From: Faecousia sp.
Lineage (GTDB): Bacteria > Bacillota > Clostridia > Oscillospirales > Oscillospiraceae
Length of the DNA stretch: 64,000 bases
Assembly: GCA_045537165.1 (NCBI GenBank)
Contig: JAZSPA010000027.1
Coordinates: 67-64,066 of the forward strand
Reading direction: 5' to 3'
Shown: in pieces, positions 44,379 through 51,178 of the stretch
Layout of the letters: the number at the start of each line of letters is the position of its first letter
How positions within the stretch are numbered: position 1 is the stretch's first letter
Program-made: the position numbers and the translations under genes
The notes under the pieces: model-generated
Told to the model about the DNA's origin: nothing
What the model saw: only the letters and a program-made list of their open reading frames with translations
The model's database searches: none

Positions 44379-44927
44379 ATGAAAATGAATTACACAAAAC
44401 GTTTGGTATTTACCGCTGTATGCGCCGCCCTGTGCGTGGTGCTGCCTATGGCTTTCCATGCGGTGCAAAATGCCGGCCAGGTCTTCCTGCCTATGCACAT
44501 CCCTGTGCTGCTGTGCGGCCTTGCCTGCGGCTGGCCCTTCGGCCTTGTGGGCGGTATTTTAGGTCCGGTGCTAAGCTCCTTGCTCACCGGTATGCCCCCC
44601 GCCGCTATGCTGCCCTCTATGGCGATTGAGTGCGCTGTCTACGGCGGCGCCAGCGGTCTGCTGATGCAGCTCGTACGCACCAAAAAGACTTATCTGGATC
44701 TTTATATCAGTATGACCGCGGCTATGATTTTAGGCCGTGTCATCGCAGGCCTTGCCAAGAGCCTGATCCTCTCCCCCGGCACAGCTCCCTTCGCCTGGGT
44801 CACCACCTCTTTGGTATCCGGCGTTCCCGGCATTATCATTCAGCTGATTCTGATCCCCACGCTGGTATATACCATGATGCGGGCCAAGCTGCTGCCCCAG
44901 CGGTACGAAAAGGAAGAAACCAAATGA
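44379..44927 (+). CDS. ECF transporter S component
   Basis: LPMHIPVLLCG..CG, MPP, PGIIIQLILIP. Confidence 0.85.
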   Translation: MKMNYTKRLVFTAVCAALCVVLPMAFHAVQNAGQVFLPMHIPVLLCGLACGWPFGLVGGILGPVLSSLLTGMPPAAMLPSMAIECAVYGGASGLLMQLVRTKKTYLDLYISMTAAMILGRVIAGLAKSLILSPGTAPFAWVTTSLVSGVPGIIIQLILIPTLVYTMMRAKLLPQRYEKEETK

Positions 44928-45502
44928 ATAAAACTGACGTCATCGCCTTTTTTGACCGGCTCGCCCCCGGTTGGGATGCAGATATGATCCGCAGCGATGC
45001 CATCATCGGCAAGATCTTGGATAACGCCGGTGTAGCTGCCGGCAAGGATGTGCTGGATGTGGCCTGCGGCACAGGCGTCCTGTTTCCGGACTATCTGGCG
45101 CGGAAGGTAAATAGCCTGACCGCTATCGATATTTCCCCCGAAATGGTAAAAATCGCCCGGGAGAAATTCCCGAAAGTAACGGTGCTTTGCGGCGATGTGG
45201 AAAGCGCAGAATTTGACCGCAAGTTCGATTGTATCGTGATCTACAACGCCTTCCCCCACTTCCCCGACCCGGAAAACCTCATCCGTGTGCTCAGCGCCCA
45301 CCTAAAACCCGGCGGCACGTTAACCGTTGCCCACGGTATGAGCAGAGCCGCCATTGACCGCCACCACGAAGGAAAGGCCAGTAAGGTCAGCATCGGCCTG
45401 ATGCACGAAGACGACCTTTCCGCCATCTTTGAAAACTACTTAACCGTAACAACCAAAATCTCCGATGACCATATGTATCAAGTCACAGGCCAACGCAAAT
45501 AA
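44924..45502 (+). CDS. Class I SAM-dependent methyltransferase
   Basis: FFDRLAPGWD, VLDVACGTG, DISPEM, NAFPHF, LKPGG. Confidence 0.88.
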   Translation: MNKTDVIAFFDRLAPGWDADMIRSDAIIGKILDNAGVAAGKDVLDVACGTGVLFPDYLARKVNSLTAIDISPEMVKIAREKFPKVTVLCGDVESAEFDRKFDCIVIYNAFPHFPDPENLIRVLSAHLKPGGTLTVAHGMSRAAIDRHHEGKASKVSIGLMHEDDLSAIFENYLTVTTKISDDHMYQVTGQRK

Positions 45503-45539
45503 AAATCCGCTGTCCGGTTGGACAGCGGGTTTTATTATT
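45502..45539. repeat. Terminator palindrome, left direct repeat of TIR islet
   Basis: CCGCTGTCCGGTTGGACAGCGG (45507-45528) is identical to 51146-51167, with shared AAAA and TTTTATTATT flanks. Confidence 0.85.
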
Positions 45540-46252
45540 TACTTTTTCGCCTTACACAGCTCATTTCTATTCTGTAGTAATACGTGAATCATATGCGCTT
45601 TTTGAACAATACTATCAGCGTCTCCAGACATAACTAATGTTTTTAGCGCTGTTAAAGCAACAGCAATTTCTCCCTCGAGTTTTTCTGTTGCAGCACTGGA
45701 AATAGGATCGCTATACTTGAAAGCATCGTTTAAGGCCAACAGCTCTTCCTTCACTTCTTCTACTTCACAGAAATTTACAATCGCAGACATAGCAAGCTGA
45801 AGTTGCATCATCATTCTTGTGGCGCCTTGCGCCTTCGTTTCCACGCCCAAAACGGTATCTCTAACATTGTCTGTAACTATTAAACCAACAATCGCTGTAC
45901 CAAGCATCAACGCAAATAATACTAACGGTATCCAATAAGACACAGGCACAAGGCAGCCAATAATACAAATTACCACACCGCAAATCAGCTGAAGCACTGC
46001 GTATATAAGACCTACACGAAAAACGGGATAACTATATACCGCAGAGATCGCGCTATCACAGTTTCTATATGCCACCCAGCAAGAATAAAGGCTAAATAAA
46101 AATGCAATTAAAGTAAATGCAAAGCTTATCCAAGCTGCAATGCCCTTAGAAAACGGAATTGTCAGAAACAACAACAAATATATGCAAAAAACTATCGCAT
46201 ATATTGCAATTACCGACCTTGCCTTCTTATCTTTCAGCATATCCATAATCAC
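45539..46252 (-). CDS. 4-TM membrane protein with C-terminal helical domain
   Basis: Four hydrophobic segments, then FKYSDPIS...RNELCKAKK; overlaps the SPFH gene stop. Confidence 0.75.
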   Translation of the reverse strand: MIMDMLKDKKARSVIAIYAIVFCIYLLLFLTIPFSKGIAAWISFAFTLIAFLFSLYSCWVAYRNCDSAISAVYSYPVFRVGLIYAVLQLICGVVICIIGCLVPVSYWIPLVLFALMLGTAIVGLIVTDNVRDTVLGVETKAQGATRMMMQLQLAMSAIVNFCEVEEVKEELLALNDAFKYSDPISSAATEKLEGEIAVALTALKTLVMSGDADSIVQKAHMIHVLLQNRNELCKAKK

Positions 46253-48012
46253 ACCTCTCGCTTAGTGCCGCAGTCAGGGCAGAATTTTGTAGCTATCCCT
46301 TTACGGCCGCAAGCACAATCCCATGCCGCATCCACTGTTGCAGGTTTGGCAGCACCGCAATCCGGGCAAAAACGGGTCATGATATTCTTTTTGCCACAAA
46401 CACAAGTCCAACCGATTTCCGTAGGTGCAACCGCTGTTGCGCCCATATTCATCATAGGCGTCATGGCTTCCTTAGTCATATCAATAACACTGCCCATTGC
46501 GCCCAACGCAACGCCCAATCCAGCTACATCGCCCAACATACCACCGCCGGTACCACCACCATTAGCGCCCATCTGCCCCAATGCATTGGCATACGCCTTC
46601 TGTACATCCGTCTGCAGCACATCTTTTTGGCTATAACCCTTCAAGTGCATTTCCTCTGCCTCAGCCATCGCCTGAGCTCGATAAACATCAGCTGAAGCAC
46701 CGCCCTCCAATTTAATGCGCTGCGCTTCTCCCTGTGCAATAGTCGCAGTGGAATCAGCCACACCAAGGGAAGAAATTCTTGCACTCTCCGCTTCGACCTG
46801 TGTTTCAAAAAGATTTGCCTTAGCCTTTGTTTCCAATTCGGCCATTGTTCTCGCACGCACGGCCTCCTCTTTAGCAACCGCCAATTTTTCTCTATGAATC
46901 TCCAAAACAGCTGCTGTATCCTGCTCTATGATCTGCTTATAATTTTCATCATCATTGAGAATATCCGTAACATAGAACTGCCCTTCTGGAATATGTAAGC
47001 CAAAGGCTTCCAGCTCCCGATTAATTGCAGCTGCTAATATAGCCGAAATCTGCGGCTTCATAATGTCAATGGTATACAACCTAAGATTGTTCTCCATAAT
47101 AACACGCGCCAGTAAAGAAGTAACATGCATAGCAATCATATCCGAGAACTTGCCACGCATATATTCCACACTATAACCCTTACCGGAATCCACCACATCT
47201 GCTGTCCCAAAAGCAGATGCCGTACCAACCAGTTTTAAAATCAGTTTTCGAGCGTCACTGATCTCCAGGTTAAATGTACCTCTAGCACCGATCTCAACAG
47301 GCATATTCGTCACAGGCTCTATAATACGTACTCTACTGGGCGTGCCCCATTTAATACCTGTCTGTACTGTTTTATTGAAAAAATATACTTCAGAATGAAG
47401 CGACCTGTCTGCATCCGGCGGCAGCTTATATATTTCGCTGAGCATAGGTATCTTCTGCGTTTCCAGTGTATATCTGCCTGCTCCAAAAAGGTCTAAGGCG
47501 CGGCCATCCCGGAAAAACAATGCCTCCTGTGATGCATGTACCGTCAACTGCGTCCCCATATTAAAATCTTCAACGGGATGTTTCCACACCAAAACACCTT
47601 CCGAACTATCCCATTTAATATCACTTACTGCATTGCTGTTTTTAATTTTCTCCTGTGCAATACGTTTCTGCACATCGATTTCAGACCCACACAAAACGCA
47701 CGTGATTTTTTCCGCATTCTTATCCGTTGTCAGCTCACATGCGCAAGAAGGACAGGTTATTTTTATCAATCCAACCTTATCCGCTGAAGCATTGATTTTC
47801 TTGTGACACACGGGGCAAAGCGCTTCCTCCCCCTTGCTTTGGTCATACACAACTTCATTTCCGCAATGAGGGCATTTTTTCTTACTCATTTTAGTTTGGT
47901 TTACATCAATTTCGCACCCACAAGCACAAACAACCTTCTTCTTTGCAAAAACGCCTGTAGAAGCCTCTACATAACTACCGCACTCAGGACAAGTGATAAC
48001 AAACTTTTTCAT
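46249..48012 (-). CDS. SPFH (YdjI-like) protein with multiple zinc ribbons
   Basis: Three N-terminal Cys-pair ribbons; LVWKHPVEDFNMGTQLTVHASQEALFFRDG...GRYTLET...IKWGT core; coiled coil; two C-terminal W.C.CG...FCPDCG ribbons. Confidence 0.85.
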   Translation of the reverse strand: MKKFVITCPECGSYVEASTGVFAKKKVVCACGCEIDVNQTKMSKKKCPHCGNEVVYDQSKGEEALCPVCHKKINASADKVGLIKITCPSCACELTTDKNAEKITCVLCGSEIDVQKRIAQEKIKNSNAVSDIKWDSSEGVLVWKHPVEDFNMGTQLTVHASQEALFFRDGRALDLFGAGRYTLETQKIPMLSEIYKLPPDADRSLHSEVYFFNKTVQTGIKWGTPSRVRIIEPVTNMPVEIGARGTFNLEISDARKLILKLVGTASAFGTADVVDSGKGYSVEYMRGKFSDMIAMHVTSLLARVIMENNLRLYTIDIMKPQISAILAAAINRELEAFGLHIPEGQFYVTDILNDDENYKQIIEQDTAAVLEIHREKLAVAKEEAVRARTMAELETKAKANLFETQVEAESARISSLGVADSTATIAQGEAQRIKLEGGASADVYRAQAMAEAEEMHLKGYSQKDVLQTDVQKAYANALGQMGANGGGTGGGMLGDVAGLGVALGAMGSVIDMTKEAMTPMMNMGATAVAPTEIGWTCVCGKKNIMTRFCPDCGAAKPATVDAAWDCACGRKGIATKFCPDCGTKREV

Positions 48013-48056
48013 ATTGACCTCCTTCTACGCTCACGAATAATGTCCATTTTAGTATT

Positions 48057-50519
48057 TTATACTCTATCCCTAGTGACATCTTTTACGCCATCTTCTTCCA
48101 ACTTACTTAGCTCTCCACATACAACAGAAAGACGTGTCGATAAATTTCTCTCCCGTTCTCTATTCTCTTTAATGTTTGCTTCCTCACGCATACAGTCTAC
48201 AGAAAATTTAATCAACCAACCCCCAATCACACCAGCAATTATCACGAGGGGCGTCAATCCTTTAAGGATGAGCAAAATCAGTCCCATAACACAGAAAAGA
48301 AATCCTATGATTGCTACAAACCATACTACTGCCATTCCAGCATAACCATATCCAGTCATTTTCCCAGTATGCGCAGGTATTTTTGTGAGTTCTTCCTCTA
48401 AACGTTCCTTTTCCCGCTTTAGTCTGGTTAACTCTTTCTCATACTTATCTTTTTTGACTCTTTCCTGCTGTCTTTTTGAAATAGATATACACTGCTTTTG
48501 TCTGCGGTCATCTACAAGAGACAAATACTTATTAAACTCAGGTACATCCTTCAAAAGATTGTTCTGTGCTATAATCGCATCTTCTGAGGACGCCTTTACC
48601 CGCATAAGGCAGAGCAACCAATATATATCCGGGTTCTGTGCATCAAAAGACACTGCTAAATTCAGAAAATACTCTGCTTCAGCAAACAAGCGCATCTGTA
48701 TGATCTTCTTGCATAAAGATACAAGCTGTGCCTTAAGTGTTGACAATTCCCCTGTGTAATATTGCAAAACCCTTTTCGCAAACGCACAATGACCAGAATC
48801 CGCAAGGTTTTTACCCAACCATGATAAACAGCTACGGATTTCCTCACTAATATCCGGCGCAAATTTTAAGAGATTTTCAAAATCCTCAATTCTTTTATTC
48901 GCATACTTTGCGCTGATTAAATCGACCGCTACAATCTCACGCAGTGCCGCAATATTTCCTTCATCTACCGATAGAACTCGCTGCAAGCATTCTATCTTTT
49001 CCCCAACATCGTTTGCCGCAACTGCATATCGATAGTTATATGCTATATATTTATCCACATCGTCAGGCTGTAATGTATCCAACAATCTTTTAAAGGGCTC
49101 CAGCTTGCTTTGGGCGATCGTTTCAGAAAACGCCGTATCAATACAATTCTGTCGCTTACCAAAAGAAAACGGCAAAACCACATCCAGTATTCTTTTATAT
49201 GTGGCTGCTGTCACTTTTCTGGTCGCTCCGTACAGCAAAACCAGCAAAGTTTGCGCAAGGCTTTGAGAAGCATAATTAAGCACCTTTTCAACGTTCGCAA
49301 AATCGGTAGCTGAAAATTTATCCAGCCTATCGATTAATTTCTCATTGTTCGGCACCTGATGTGCGACCAATAGCTTACACCAAATTGCCTCAGCGCAAGT
49401 AGGATTGTCGAAAAGAACATCACTTACCAGATTGGACGCCTCCTGCCATTGATGCTCTGACAAATATGCGTAAACTAGATTGATCGATTGCTTCTCACTC
49501 AAGCTTGTTTCCGCAATAGCTCCCATTCCGACTTCTCGGGTCTTTACAGCATTTACGGATATAGCTGTAGCCTTTTTTGCTATTTGTCCGCTGGCTATCT
49601 CGATCTTCTCGAGATGAACATTTCTCTTTGTTTCGTCGATCACCCGTTTAACATGAGCAATAAGATCAGAAAGAAACGTTATATCGGCAGCATTTAAACA
49701 CTGTTTTTTAAGAACACTGGGAAGATCACCGGGATTCATATTTTTAAAAGCAACAACCAAAGAATTCTTATGCTTTTCCCCTTTCTCAATTCGCGCCTTA
49801 AAACGGCTCCACTCGTTCTTCACCCATATAGCATTAAAATACTCTGCCTTTTCACCAAACACGATCATAACCTTTGCTGTTTTAATCGCGTTATAGATAT
49901 ACGGCTCATACTGTTCCGAAGTTTTATTGCGCAAACTAACATGGCTAAAAAATACCTTATAGCCCTTTTCCACAAGTGCATAGTAAAGATCCTGCGCATC
50001 ATAGCTATCCTGTGTACGTTCGATACCATTCTCTTTATCGCTGTCCTTATAGCTTATAAAAATGTCATAAGCAGGTTCCTTACTGGCTTTCTCCAGCCAT
50101 TCAACACGCACCTTTTCTATGTACTGCGCCTGCTTTCTGTATTCATCTGCTATTTCCTTAGGCGCTAAAGATATTGCCATCTGTACATCTTTATGATTCA
50201 GGAAGGATATTTCTGTAATATTATGACAGGTTGGAACCTTCTTATCCTCTCGCAAATCATTAACATACACAATACCGCTCAAGGCGAGTGCACGTCCCCA
50301 ATATGCCTCATAATTTTTAGATTCTTTTATTATGATCTCTTCAAACAACTCTGCCGCTTTTTCAAAATCGCCATTGCGAAGTGCTTCCCATGCGTTTGCC
50401 CGATGCACAGCATGAATATCGTCAGCACTATCGATTTCCCACTTATGTCTGCAATACTCACAAATATAGTAGTTTCCCGATCGAACAAGCGGGCCTCCAC
50501 AAGTTTGACAAGCTCTCAT
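48057..50519 (-). CDS. Zn-finger/TPR/TIR-domain membrane protein
   Basis: CQTCGG...CEYC; TPR-like helices; TIR motifs YDIFISYK, GYKVFFS, WVKNEW; helical repeats, coiled coil, two C-terminal TM. Confidence 0.85.
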   Translation of the reverse strand: MRACQTCGGPLVRSGNYYICEYCRHKWEIDSADDIHAVHRANAWEALRNGDFEKAAELFEEIIIKESKNYEAYWGRALALSGIVYVNDLREDKKVPTCHNITEISFLNHKDVQMAISLAPKEIADEYRKQAQYIEKVRVEWLEKASKEPAYDIFISYKDSDKENGIERTQDSYDAQDLYYALVEKGYKVFFSHVSLRNKTSEQYEPYIYNAIKTAKVMIVFGEKAEYFNAIWVKNEWSRFKARIEKGEKHKNSLVVAFKNMNPGDLPSVLKKQCLNAADITFLSDLIAHVKRVIDETKRNVHLEKIEIASGQIAKKATAISVNAVKTREVGMGAIAETSLSEKQSINLVYAYLSEHQWQEASNLVSDVLFDNPTCAEAIWCKLLVAHQVPNNEKLIDRLDKFSATDFANVEKVLNYASQSLAQTLLVLLYGATRKVTAATYKRILDVVLPFSFGKRQNCIDTAFSETIAQSKLEPFKRLLDTLQPDDVDKYIAYNYRYAVAANDVGEKIECLQRVLSVDEGNIAALREIVAVDLISAKYANKRIEDFENLLKFAPDISEEIRSCLSWLGKNLADSGHCAFAKRVLQYYTGELSTLKAQLVSLCKKIIQMRLFAEAEYFLNLAVSFDAQNPDIYWLLCLMRVKASSEDAIIAQNNLLKDVPEFNKYLSLVDDRRQKQCISISKRQQERVKKDKYEKELTRLKREKERLEEELTKIPAHTGKMTGYGYAGMAVVWFVAIIGFLFCVMGLILLILKGLTPLVIIAGVIGGWLIKFSVDCMREEANIKENRERERNLSTRLSVVCGELSKLEEDGVKDVTRDRV

Positions 50520-50642
50520 TACTCAATCACTCCGCTTTCTAAAAAAGTGTTTTTCTTCCTATCATTATGCTATTTTTCTTCCTATTTGTCAAGGTAAAAT
50601 GGAAGTATAATTCCTATATAGACCTATACGGGGGGAAGTAAA

Positions 50643-50972
50643 ATGCTGGTATACGATCTTCATATCATAGGAAACAGGCTGCTTGGTTTTCGCAAGCGAA
50701 TCGGACTGACCCAGGCTGAAGTAGCGGAGGCTGCTGGGCTCTCTGACCGCACCTACGCAGACATAGAGCGGGGTACAGTAAATATGCGCATTGAAACTTT
50801 GCTCCACATTTGCGATGTACTGCACATCACCCCCGATGAAGTGCTCACCCAGGACGTCAGCCCCGAGATTCCTCAGCAAGATACCCTGCTTAGCCGTCTG
50901 AACGCCTGCAACCCCAAGGACAAGGAAACCGCCCTGCAGCTCCTCTCTGTCTTCCTCAAATCTCTAAACTAA
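50643..50972 (+). CDS. XRE-family HTH regulator
   Basis: RKRIGLTQAEVAEAAGLSDRTYADIERG; divergent from the TIR gene; terminator at 50972-50997. Confidence 0.88.
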   Translation: MLVYDLHIIGNRLLGFRKRIGLTQAEVAEAAGLSDRTYADIERGTVNMRIETLLHICDVLHITPDEVLTQDVSPEIPQQDTLLSRLNACNPKDKETALQLLSVFLKSLN

Positions 50973-51053
50973 AGCCGCTGCTCACGCAGCGGCTTTTCGT
51001 TTGCGTACCATAAGTATGTATGTTAGCATACTTACTTACACGCATCATATATC

Positions 51054-51075
51054 AGTGTCCACTAAAAAGTGGACA
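51054..51075. repeat. Inverted third copy of the 10328-10349 palindrome
   Basis: AGTGTCCACTAAAAAGTGGACA is the exact reverse complement of TGTCCACTTTTTAGTGGACACT. Confidence 0.75.
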
Positions 51076-51104
51076 TAAAATTCAAACGCATCCCTAAGGG
51101 ATAC

Positions 51105-51139
51105 ATTTATTGTGCATTGTCCATTATGTATTGTGCATT
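51105..51139. repeat. Heptamer tandem repeat (RTNYATT)x5
   Basis: ATTTATT GTGCATT GTCCATT ATGTATT GTGCATT. Confidence 0.7.
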
Positions 51140-51140
51140 A

Positions 51141-51178
51141 AAAAACCGCTGTCCGGTTGGACAGCGGATTTTATTATT
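51141..51178. terminator. Transketolase terminator, right direct repeat of TIR islet
   Basis: Same palindrome as 45507-45528. Confidence 0.85.

Follow-up and report, generated by a model that had tools for sequence, protein, structure and literature searches.

TIR domains are common to the immune systems of animals, plants and bacteria. To our knowledge, all bacterial TIR systems characterised so far are cytosolic, and their trigger is a phage protein, a nucleic acid or an upstream signalling nucleotide. On the SPFH side, a close described counterpart of the locus considered here is found in the pspA-ydjGHI (samGHI) operon of Bacillus subtilis, where membrane proteins recruit the SPFH protein SamI (YdjI), which has effects on stress and development (PMC8581546, PMC13713150); proteins of the YdjI type bear C-terminal zinc ribbons (PMC11237479). 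Here we analyse an islet in which a TIR protein and an SPFH protein are encoded side by side. It lies in a 64,000-nucleotide (nt) stretch of DNA from Faecousia sp. (assembly GCA_045537165.1, contig JAZSPA010000027.1, positions 67-64,066, forward strand), which we call the window and whose coordinates are used throughout. The islet encodes on the minus strand a membrane-anchored TIR protein of 820 amino acids (aa) (P0001, 48057-50519), a 587-aa SPFH protein (P0002, 46249-48012) and a 237-aa protein with four transmembrane (TM) helices (the 4-TM protein P0003, 45539-46252). The trio is a real conserved module and matches no named system in PADLOC or in the literature searched. In our judgement there is an even chance that the islet is an undescribed membrane-coupled TIR module of conflict, that is, of defence type.

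How firmly are the three genes bound to one another? In the window, P0001 and P0002 are separated by 44 nt and P0002 and P0003 overlap by 4 nt. An earlier note on this DNA, drawn from the letters and a list of open reading frames (ORFs), had described a three-gene operon with a divergent XRE-family regulator, and the protein lengths and close spacing that it gave agree with our ORF calls. Metagenomes were scanned with a narrow alignment of the 4-TM protein; a single 4-TM sequence used as query found nothing. Of the 80 loci chosen in this way by the 4-TM protein, 19 had at least 5 kb of flank on both sides, and each of these 19 has an SPFH gene immediately upstream and one or more TIR genes (two or more in 9 of them). 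Every one of the 84 TIR genes shares the strand of the 4-TM gene, and 28 start within 100 nt of its stop codon. When loci were instead selected by the TIR gene (83 loci, 927 neighbour genes), the recurrent neighbours were SPFH genes (36 loci) and 4-TM genes (28 loci) only, the next most frequent neighbour family being present in 8 loci. Among 150 genomes sampled from the class, the head of the TIR protein, i.e. its N-terminal zinc ribbon, TPR unit and TIR domain, was detected in 16 and the 4-TM protein in 20, with both in 13, where approximately two would be expected by chance. Wherever both match, they lie side by side on one contig, and the two strong 4-TM matches without TIR lie at contig ends. 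The conservation of the triad in other neighbourhoods, which the earlier note had proposed as a check, is borne out by these loci.

The association is not symmetrical. Five genomes carry TIR paralogues and no close orthologue of P0002, so that it is the pair of SPFH and 4-TM genes that relies on the TIR family, not the TIR family on the pair. As TIR alone occurs and the pair is never seen without TIR, the pair is best read as an accessory sensor or scaffold that feeds into TIR, not as an obligatory antidote. An SPFH antidote to TIR was considered in its own right and rejected as unlikely, given the TIR paralogues in genomes and loci that have no close P0002 orthologue.

Judged from its sequence, P0001 is a type-II-like membrane protein whose N-terminal 720 aa are cytoplasmic. 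The first part of the head (aa 1-100; 50220-50519) comprises a Cys4 zinc ribbon at aa 4-23, a TPR unit at aa 38-81 that is matched by Pfam, and a beta-hairpin. The TIR domain follows at aa 151-300 (49620-50069) and leads into a TPR-like alpha-solenoid of some 9-10 helix pairs at aa 340-690 (48450-49502), which gives way to a coiled coil at aa 691-722, a two-helix membrane hairpin at aa 723-777 (48189-48449 for coiled coil and hairpin) and a 43-aa charged tail (48057-48188; all these features are on the minus strand). Hydropathy assigns the hairpin a loop of a few residues and places the tail in the cytoplasm, so that P0001, with only this two-helix hairpin, has nothing exposed outside. Pfam, AlphaFold2 (AF2) models and hydropathy together reproduce the layout proposed in the earlier note: a CxxC..CxxC finger, TPR-like helices, a TIR domain, a coiled coil and two TM helices.

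Does the TIR domain resemble an enzyme? It matches Pfam TIR_2 (PF13676) at aa 153-267 with 32.8 bits (cut-off 28, E 1.1e-7), and a distant member of the family reaches 40.3 bits against the same profile. Conservation was followed over 52 heads of 31-77% identity. In the motif W232-V-K-N-E236-W (49809-49826, minus strand; E236 codon at 49812-49814), W232, K234, N235, E236 and W237 are invariant in 52 of 52 heads, as is R239 just beyond it; further invariant residues of the head are D152, F154 and K158 of the beta-A motif and R168, T169, D171 and S172, and the ribbon cysteines C4, C7, C20 and C23 are invariant across the family. This motif can be aligned with WC..E in the solved TIR of TLR15, and the spacing from W to E (i, i+4) is what we take to be the SARM1 and AbTir spacing. 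With 52 homologues, AF2 gave a model of aa 1-345 (predicted local distance difference test, pLDDT, 83.9) that shows the zinc ribbon, the TPR unit, the beta-hairpin and a long linker helix packed with the TIR fold, and aa 305-340 as disordered. In Foldseek the best matches of the head in the PDB are SARM1, Roq1, TIR-STING, AbTir, PdTIR and BtpA, each with a probability of 1.00, and C. elegans TIR-1; the TM-score to AbTir, by target, is 0.76. The model of aa 330-705 is a TPR superhelix (pLDDT 96.6; predicted TM-score, pTM, 0.89) that in Foldseek and VIA matches consensus TPR, OGT, SPY, BBS4 and subunits of APC/C, with VIA Z of 11-12. The models and alignments support the view that the TIR domain keeps both the catalytic-type Glu that the earlier note had singled out in WVKNEW and the fold of enzymatic TIRs.

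P0002 is, on sequence grounds, a soluble SPFH protein of the YdjI/SamI class. Its Band_7_1 core (aa 148-362; 46927-47571) scores 103 bits against a cut-off of 24 (E 2.3e-29), with a profile that also matches in B. subtilis. Three Cys4 zinc ribbons (47689-47991) precede the core. Behind it come a flotillin-like Ala/Glu-rich coiled coil (46603-46926), a weakly hydrophobic segment rich in Gly (46483-46587) and, towards the C-terminus, a further two Cys4 ribbons (46270-46404; C537/C539/C549/C552 and C566/C568/C578/C581), all on the minus strand; this makes up the five ribbons counted in the earlier note. Hydropathy finds no real TM helix in P0002, only a single weak hydrophobic segment at aa 492-510. 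The same method bears out the 4-TM assignment of P0003, whose four helices fall within aa ~10-130 and are followed by a cytoplasmic helical C-domain with a conserved YSDP motif and an RN..CK..K C-terminus. P0003 has no match in Pfam or NCBIfam, and a search of the Atlas returned only unnamed Bacillota clusters. Members of its family always adjoin SPFH and TIR genes. The profile and structure searches that the earlier note had recommended for TIR_2, SPFH/YdjI and TPR returned TIR_2, TPR and Band_7_1, and in Foldseek TIR and TPR structures. A complex prediction that combined SPFH aa 130-587, the 4-TM protein and TIR head aa 1-300 gave a score of 0.00, which speaks neither for nor against binding. 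The 4-TM family varies in length: fused forms with open frames of 511-518 aa (G095:C29:2566-3231, G096:C74:8874-9542, G160:C22:30478-31146) and short forms of 139-149 aa that consist of the membrane part only (G091:C1:41585-41959, G162:C17:60805-61200) both adjoin TIR genes.

How does the trio compare with described systems? With PADLOC models at E up to 0.1, P0001-P0003 gave no match save two weak unrelated ones on P0002. A literature search found no paper joining SPFH proteins with TIR or with anti-phage defence, most subscription papers being outside its reach. No SIR2, SLOG or Macro domain of a Thoeris ThsA effector is present in the islet, and neither a cyclase nor an Argonaute/APAZ partner, as in CBASS, Pycsar or SPARTA, is found among the four islet proteins. 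The earlier note, too, had seen no ThsA, cyclase or Argonaute partner and had recognised no TIR system that the triad fits. The likeness to Thoeris, the TIR effectors of CBASS/Pycsar, SPARTA, TIR-STING, SpbK and AbTir lies in a cytoplasmic TIR domain with a catalytic-type Glu, in patchy horizontal spread and in several TIR paralogues per locus, comparable to multiple ThsB genes; in contrast to these systems, the islet TIR is membrane-anchored and fused to TPR, and its partners are an SPFH and a 4-TM protein.

With SARM1/TIR-1, which are among the top Foldseek matches, P0001 shares a W-x-x-x-E TIR and a long alpha-solenoid in one chain, as well as membrane association. In P0001, however, the TIR domain precedes the solenoid, the solenoid is TPR and not ARM, SAM domains are missing, a zinc ribbon and a membrane hairpin are added, and the gene sits in a bacterial operon with SPFH. 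Animal Toll-like receptors resemble some family members in having LRR, TM and TIR parts across the membrane, but the chain order is reversed, P0001 has no ectodomain and its TIR looks enzymatic and not adaptor-type; there is no evidence of common descent with the Toll-like receptor architecture.

On the SPFH side, pspA-ydjGHI and the islet have in common a Band_7_1 core, one or more C-terminal zinc ribbons, the lack of an own TM helix and an SPFH gene beside a gene for a small membrane protein (PMC11237479, PMC8581546, PMC13713150). The extra zinc ribbons are in YdjG in the former and at the N-terminus of P0002 in the latter. Unlike in B. subtilis, TIR is an obligate third component here and the partner belongs to an unnamed 4-TM family; P0003 is not a TPM-domain (YdjH-like) protein, and the islet has no protein of YdjG type. 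PspA_IM30 (PF04012) was not found in the 88%-complete host genome, in which controls match, and is absent from the islet too. As PspA was not found and P0003 is not a TPM protein, the trio is not the Psp/SamGHI system. The comparison with YdjI and Psp drawn in the earlier note therefore stands for the shared Band_7_1 family and is incomplete as an analogy to Psp, given a host genome with no detectable PspA. In HflK/C-FtsH and stomatin-NfeD, as in the islet, one operon encodes an SPFH oligomer and a membrane protein dedicated to it, and the assembly may surround or organise an enzyme of the membrane; a 24-mer cage is cited in PMC10936438. P0002 differs from these in having no N-terminal TM anchor, and its partner is neither NfeD nor a protease.

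The TIR gene is one of a very large family, present in several copies per genome and with outer domains that can be exchanged, that often occurs without the SPFH pair, a point not made in the earlier note. A word-indexed search returned more than 2,393 relatives, and an exhaustive search with a head profile gave 4,729 clusters at 50% identity with E of at most 1e-30. Among the best 150 proteins, which range from 495 to 3,073 aa, the head is N-terminal in all but the first; the one such case, P0124 (1,217 aa), carries its zinc-ribbon/TPR/TIR head at residues 383-726. Conservation falls along the chain, with a mean pairwise identity of 0.78 for TIR, 0.68 for ribbon/TPR, 0.43 for the solenoid and 0.16 for coiled coil, membrane part and tail. 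In approximately 22 of the best 120 matches, LRR_5/LRR_8, RCC1 or InlB B-repeat domains follow the membrane segment. Genomes hold 3-6 copies, clustered or dispersed. All of this is found in gut Bacillota (Christensenellales, Oscillospiraceae, Lachnospiraceae, Acutalibacteraceae and a few Bacilli and Anaeroplasmataceae); in an even sample of the class the family was present in 15 of 147 high-quality genomes and 12 of 106 genera, and among 40 relatives of the host genome it was found in none. This is a very large family, present in about one genus in nine of the sampled class, that always anchors its TIR domain to the membrane and is repeatedly linked to SPFH. In a tree of heads the SPFH linkage appears in both deep clades, and P0001 sits in a six-member subclade that is SPFH-linked throughout.

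A second type of operon is found at basal branches of the P0001 clade (L029-L031, L033, L034, L038 and L040; for instance L029:4181-11384 and L038:845-13187). It runs from an XRE gene through a short Band_7_1 protein (217 aa), a 335-342-aa coiled-coil protein and a 194-196-aa protein to an AAA+ ATPase with a Vps4_C match, a TIR protein and a zinc-ribbon trypsin-like protease. The TIR proteins of these sister operons lie inside the same well-supported group of the tree as P0001. The nearest named Atlas clusters of the 196-aa protein carry Snf7, and a PDB profile search with it returned nothing meaningful; its likeness to ESCRT-III is a lead given by this Atlas feature. Parts of such operons of gut Firmicutes, with SPFH, ESCRT-III-like, Vps4-like AAA+, TIR and protease components, were reported by Ravi et al. 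2024 (PMC11237479). Sister operons and islet share the TIR family, a Band_7_1 protein and an XRE gene where the operon begins; they differ in that the islet has a long zinc-ribbon SPFH protein and a 4-TM protein and is without AAA+, Snf7-like and protease genes. The TIR family is thus linked to Band_7_1 proteins in two different operon types. A third, looser TIR-SPFH link may exist in G077, a genome without a close P0002 orthologue, where a divergent 1,617-aa TIR paralogue lies approximately 5 kb from a 346-aa generic Band_7_1 gene (G077:C87:7478-8269 and G077:C87:13065-14072).

Based on these observations, we propose a model in which the islet acts as a membrane-coupled conflict module. The SPFH oligomer would be held at the inner membrane face by the 4-TM protein, much as SamG/SamH do for SamI in B. 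subtilis, and the resulting platform would report a membrane-proximal event, such as the entry or egress of a phage or damage to the envelope, to TIR proteins that share this membrane. Until the signal lets the heads associate, TIR might be kept off by its TPR solenoid, comparable to the ARM solenoid in SARM1. Once assembled, the TIR domains could cleave NAD+, resulting in depletion or in an ADP-ribose-derived signal, for which the 4-TM protein might then serve as membrane effector downstream. The XRE gene would repress this copy, and the 5.6-kb unit was probably acquired horizontally into a terminator between housekeeping genes. A role in conflict is favoured by the catalytic-type TIR, the conserved head joined to a variable tail, the paralogue arrays, the patchy horizontal spread, the low-GC repeat-bounded islet with its CapH-like regulator, and the association of the sister clade with a protease and an AAA+ ATPase. 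If the islet is a defence system, it would show how bacteria read membrane events as signals of infection, and SPFH proteins would gain an immune role; in any case it is a system built on TIR whose partners and membrane anchor are without precedent, and the window locus is its compact, three-gene form.

Several observations weigh against such a role. The genes that flank the islet encode an ECF S component, a methyltransferase, SpoIIP, a TadA-like deaminase, QueH and a split transketolase, all of them housekeeping functions. Elsewhere, approximately 10 of 149 non-redundant neighbours are PADLOC-positive (restriction-modification, parts of MADS, MzaA, IetA, SoFic, HTH), a raw count without a background, and the Pfam list of neighbours is led by GNAT, AraC and methyltransferase families; the module does not appear to lie in a defence island, here or on average, a point that the earlier note had listed for checking. 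P0001 has no match in phage or plasmid records, and 2.9 million viral contigs contain only 3 family loci. The islet has no SLOG, SAVED, Macro or STING protein, the known receptors of TIR-made signals. SPFH appears dispensable for some family members, since five genomes have TIR without a close P0002 orthologue. Moreover, the characterised role of the Band_7_1 SPFH family is in envelope stress and physiology, not in immunity. Finally, the trigger by phage or membrane and the clustering of TIR by SPFH are what we infer, and the phenotype and the NADase activity are likewise predicted. As for the contigs labelled viral, in two of the three (L190 and L191, IMG/VR) an SPFH gene lies beside the TIR member; L191 also has a 4-TM gene, and the L190 contig ends inside the SPFH gene.

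The conflict model can be extended to the sister operons. It is conceivable, and we put it forward as a doubtful rather than a likely proposition, that the trio and the ESCRT-III-/Vps4-like sister operons form one ancient family of membrane-integrity immune machines, in which an SPFH platform gates an anchored, solenoid-restrained TIR NADase. If so, when a phage or toxin breaches or remodels the membrane, this would be read directly as a danger signal, scaffolds of the membrane-repair type would be coupled to TIR immunity, and the outer domains would have diversified in a receptor-like manner.

The same operons can be read without any conflict. A module for envelope stress or membrane homeostasis, in which a platform resembling SamGHI or Psp works with a TIR that is a regulated generator of an NAD-derived signal or an adaptor, and not a suicide device, strikes us as unlikely, although several observations speak for it: P0002 falls in the Pfam family of YdjI/SamI, whose recruitment by membrane proteins and effects on stress and development were described above (PMC8581546, PMC13713150), the short Band_7_1, Vps4_C AAA+ and Snf7-neighboured proteins of the sister operon are themes of membrane remodelling, neighbours are mostly non-defence genes, and the family is rare on mobile elements. 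It has to contend with a host genome, 88% complete, in which no PspA_IM30 was found, with a membrane partner that is not TPM/YdjH-like, and with patchy, horizontal, multi-copy occurrence and hypervariable tails that are unusual for a housekeeping stress system. In addition, the bacterial TIRs with a catalytic Glu that we know of have so far been tied to conflict. Should the module serve stress after all, a bacterial TIR enzyme would for the first time be seen to act in physiology and not in conflict.

The variable tails invite another interpretation, namely a family of transmembrane receptors with a reversed Toll-like layout, in which the outer or membrane part senses an extracellular or membrane ligand (a phage, a neighbouring cell or a host factor) and signals through the coiled coil and solenoid to TIR, the SPFH/4-TM pair only organising receptors in a microdomain. 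The LRR_5, LRR_8, RCC1 or InlB B-repeats after the membrane segment in those ~22 of the best 120 homologues agree with it, as do the head that is constantly N-terminal (149 of the best 150) while total length spans 495-3073 aa, and the several paralogues with differing tails that have one SPFH/4-TM pair in common. P0001, however, has a two-helix hairpin and would have to be a member that lacks an ectodomain and does its sensing inside the membrane, and the topology of the LRR members is presumed; we consider this account quite improbable as an explanation of the islet, and it overlaps with the conflict module rather than excluding it. Least probable of all, and in our view very improbable, is that the head is a non-enzymatic, protein-protein assembly module of a structural or secretion/vesicle membrane complex with SPFH: TIR domains can serve purely as scaffolds, the WC..E motif also occurs in TLR TIRs that are not NADases and the sister clade is linked to membrane-shaping genes, but W and E are invariant at i, i+4, presumably as in NADases of the SARM1/AbTir type, and the best structural matches are enzymatic TIRs.

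The islet itself stands out from its surroundings by a GC content of 0.38-0.49 against 0.51-0.58 outside, in keeping with the AT-richer composition remarked on in the earlier note, and is enclosed by the duplicated terminator that the note had also seen. The two 40-nt hairpins (45500-45539 and 51139-51178) share 38 of 40 positions, and their 22-nt core is found at the two islet ends and nowhere else in the 1.55-Mb assembly, which is far beyond chance. The left copy, direct repeat D1, is terminator-like on both strands and also ends the upstream methyltransferase gene; the right copy also ends the convergent transketolase gene. Between the TIR gene and the divergent regulator lies a promoter-like site, TTGACA-17-CATAAT (50564-50592, minus strand), proposed from its match to 11 of 12 consensus positions only. 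The XRE-family regulator P0004 (109 aa; 50643-50972, plus strand; HTH_3 E 1.6e-11) is CapH-like in PADLOC (E 2.1e-9) and is followed by a hairpin terminator at 50977-50993. As a conserved component of the module the XRE gene was rejected, an XRE-like ORF being present within 600 nt upstream in 1 of 153 loci. The XRE gene and the repeat-bounded islet, presented in the earlier note as parts of one unit, are features of the window locus and not of the family.

Regarding the flanks, a 290-aa ORF from the GTG at 44630 (within 44379-45502) is an over-call, as relatives show two genes: the true pair is an ECF S component at 44379-44927 and a methyltransferase of about 190 aa from ~44930. This pair is kept in four congeners. 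An empty site was sought there, and in none of the four do SpoIIP or the transketolase lie within ~9 kb of the pair; the flanking synteny is broken, and therefore the congeners offer no uninterrupted terminator for comparison. A search of sequencing runs listed no RNA run, and the DNA runs share at most 0.10 of words.

Additional observations concern the mobility of the module. No integrase is encoded among the islet genes. The AT-rich stretch at 51000-51138, between the XRE terminator and the right repeat, has hairpins of its own (GTCCACTAAAAAGTGGAC; ATCCCTAAGGGAT) and two copies of the short direct repeat ATTGTGCATT, and may be the remnant of a recombination site. At L004:6838-7683, in a close relative of the trio, a gene for a 281-aa tyrosine recombinase lies directly upstream of the TIR gene, which hints at how the module moves.

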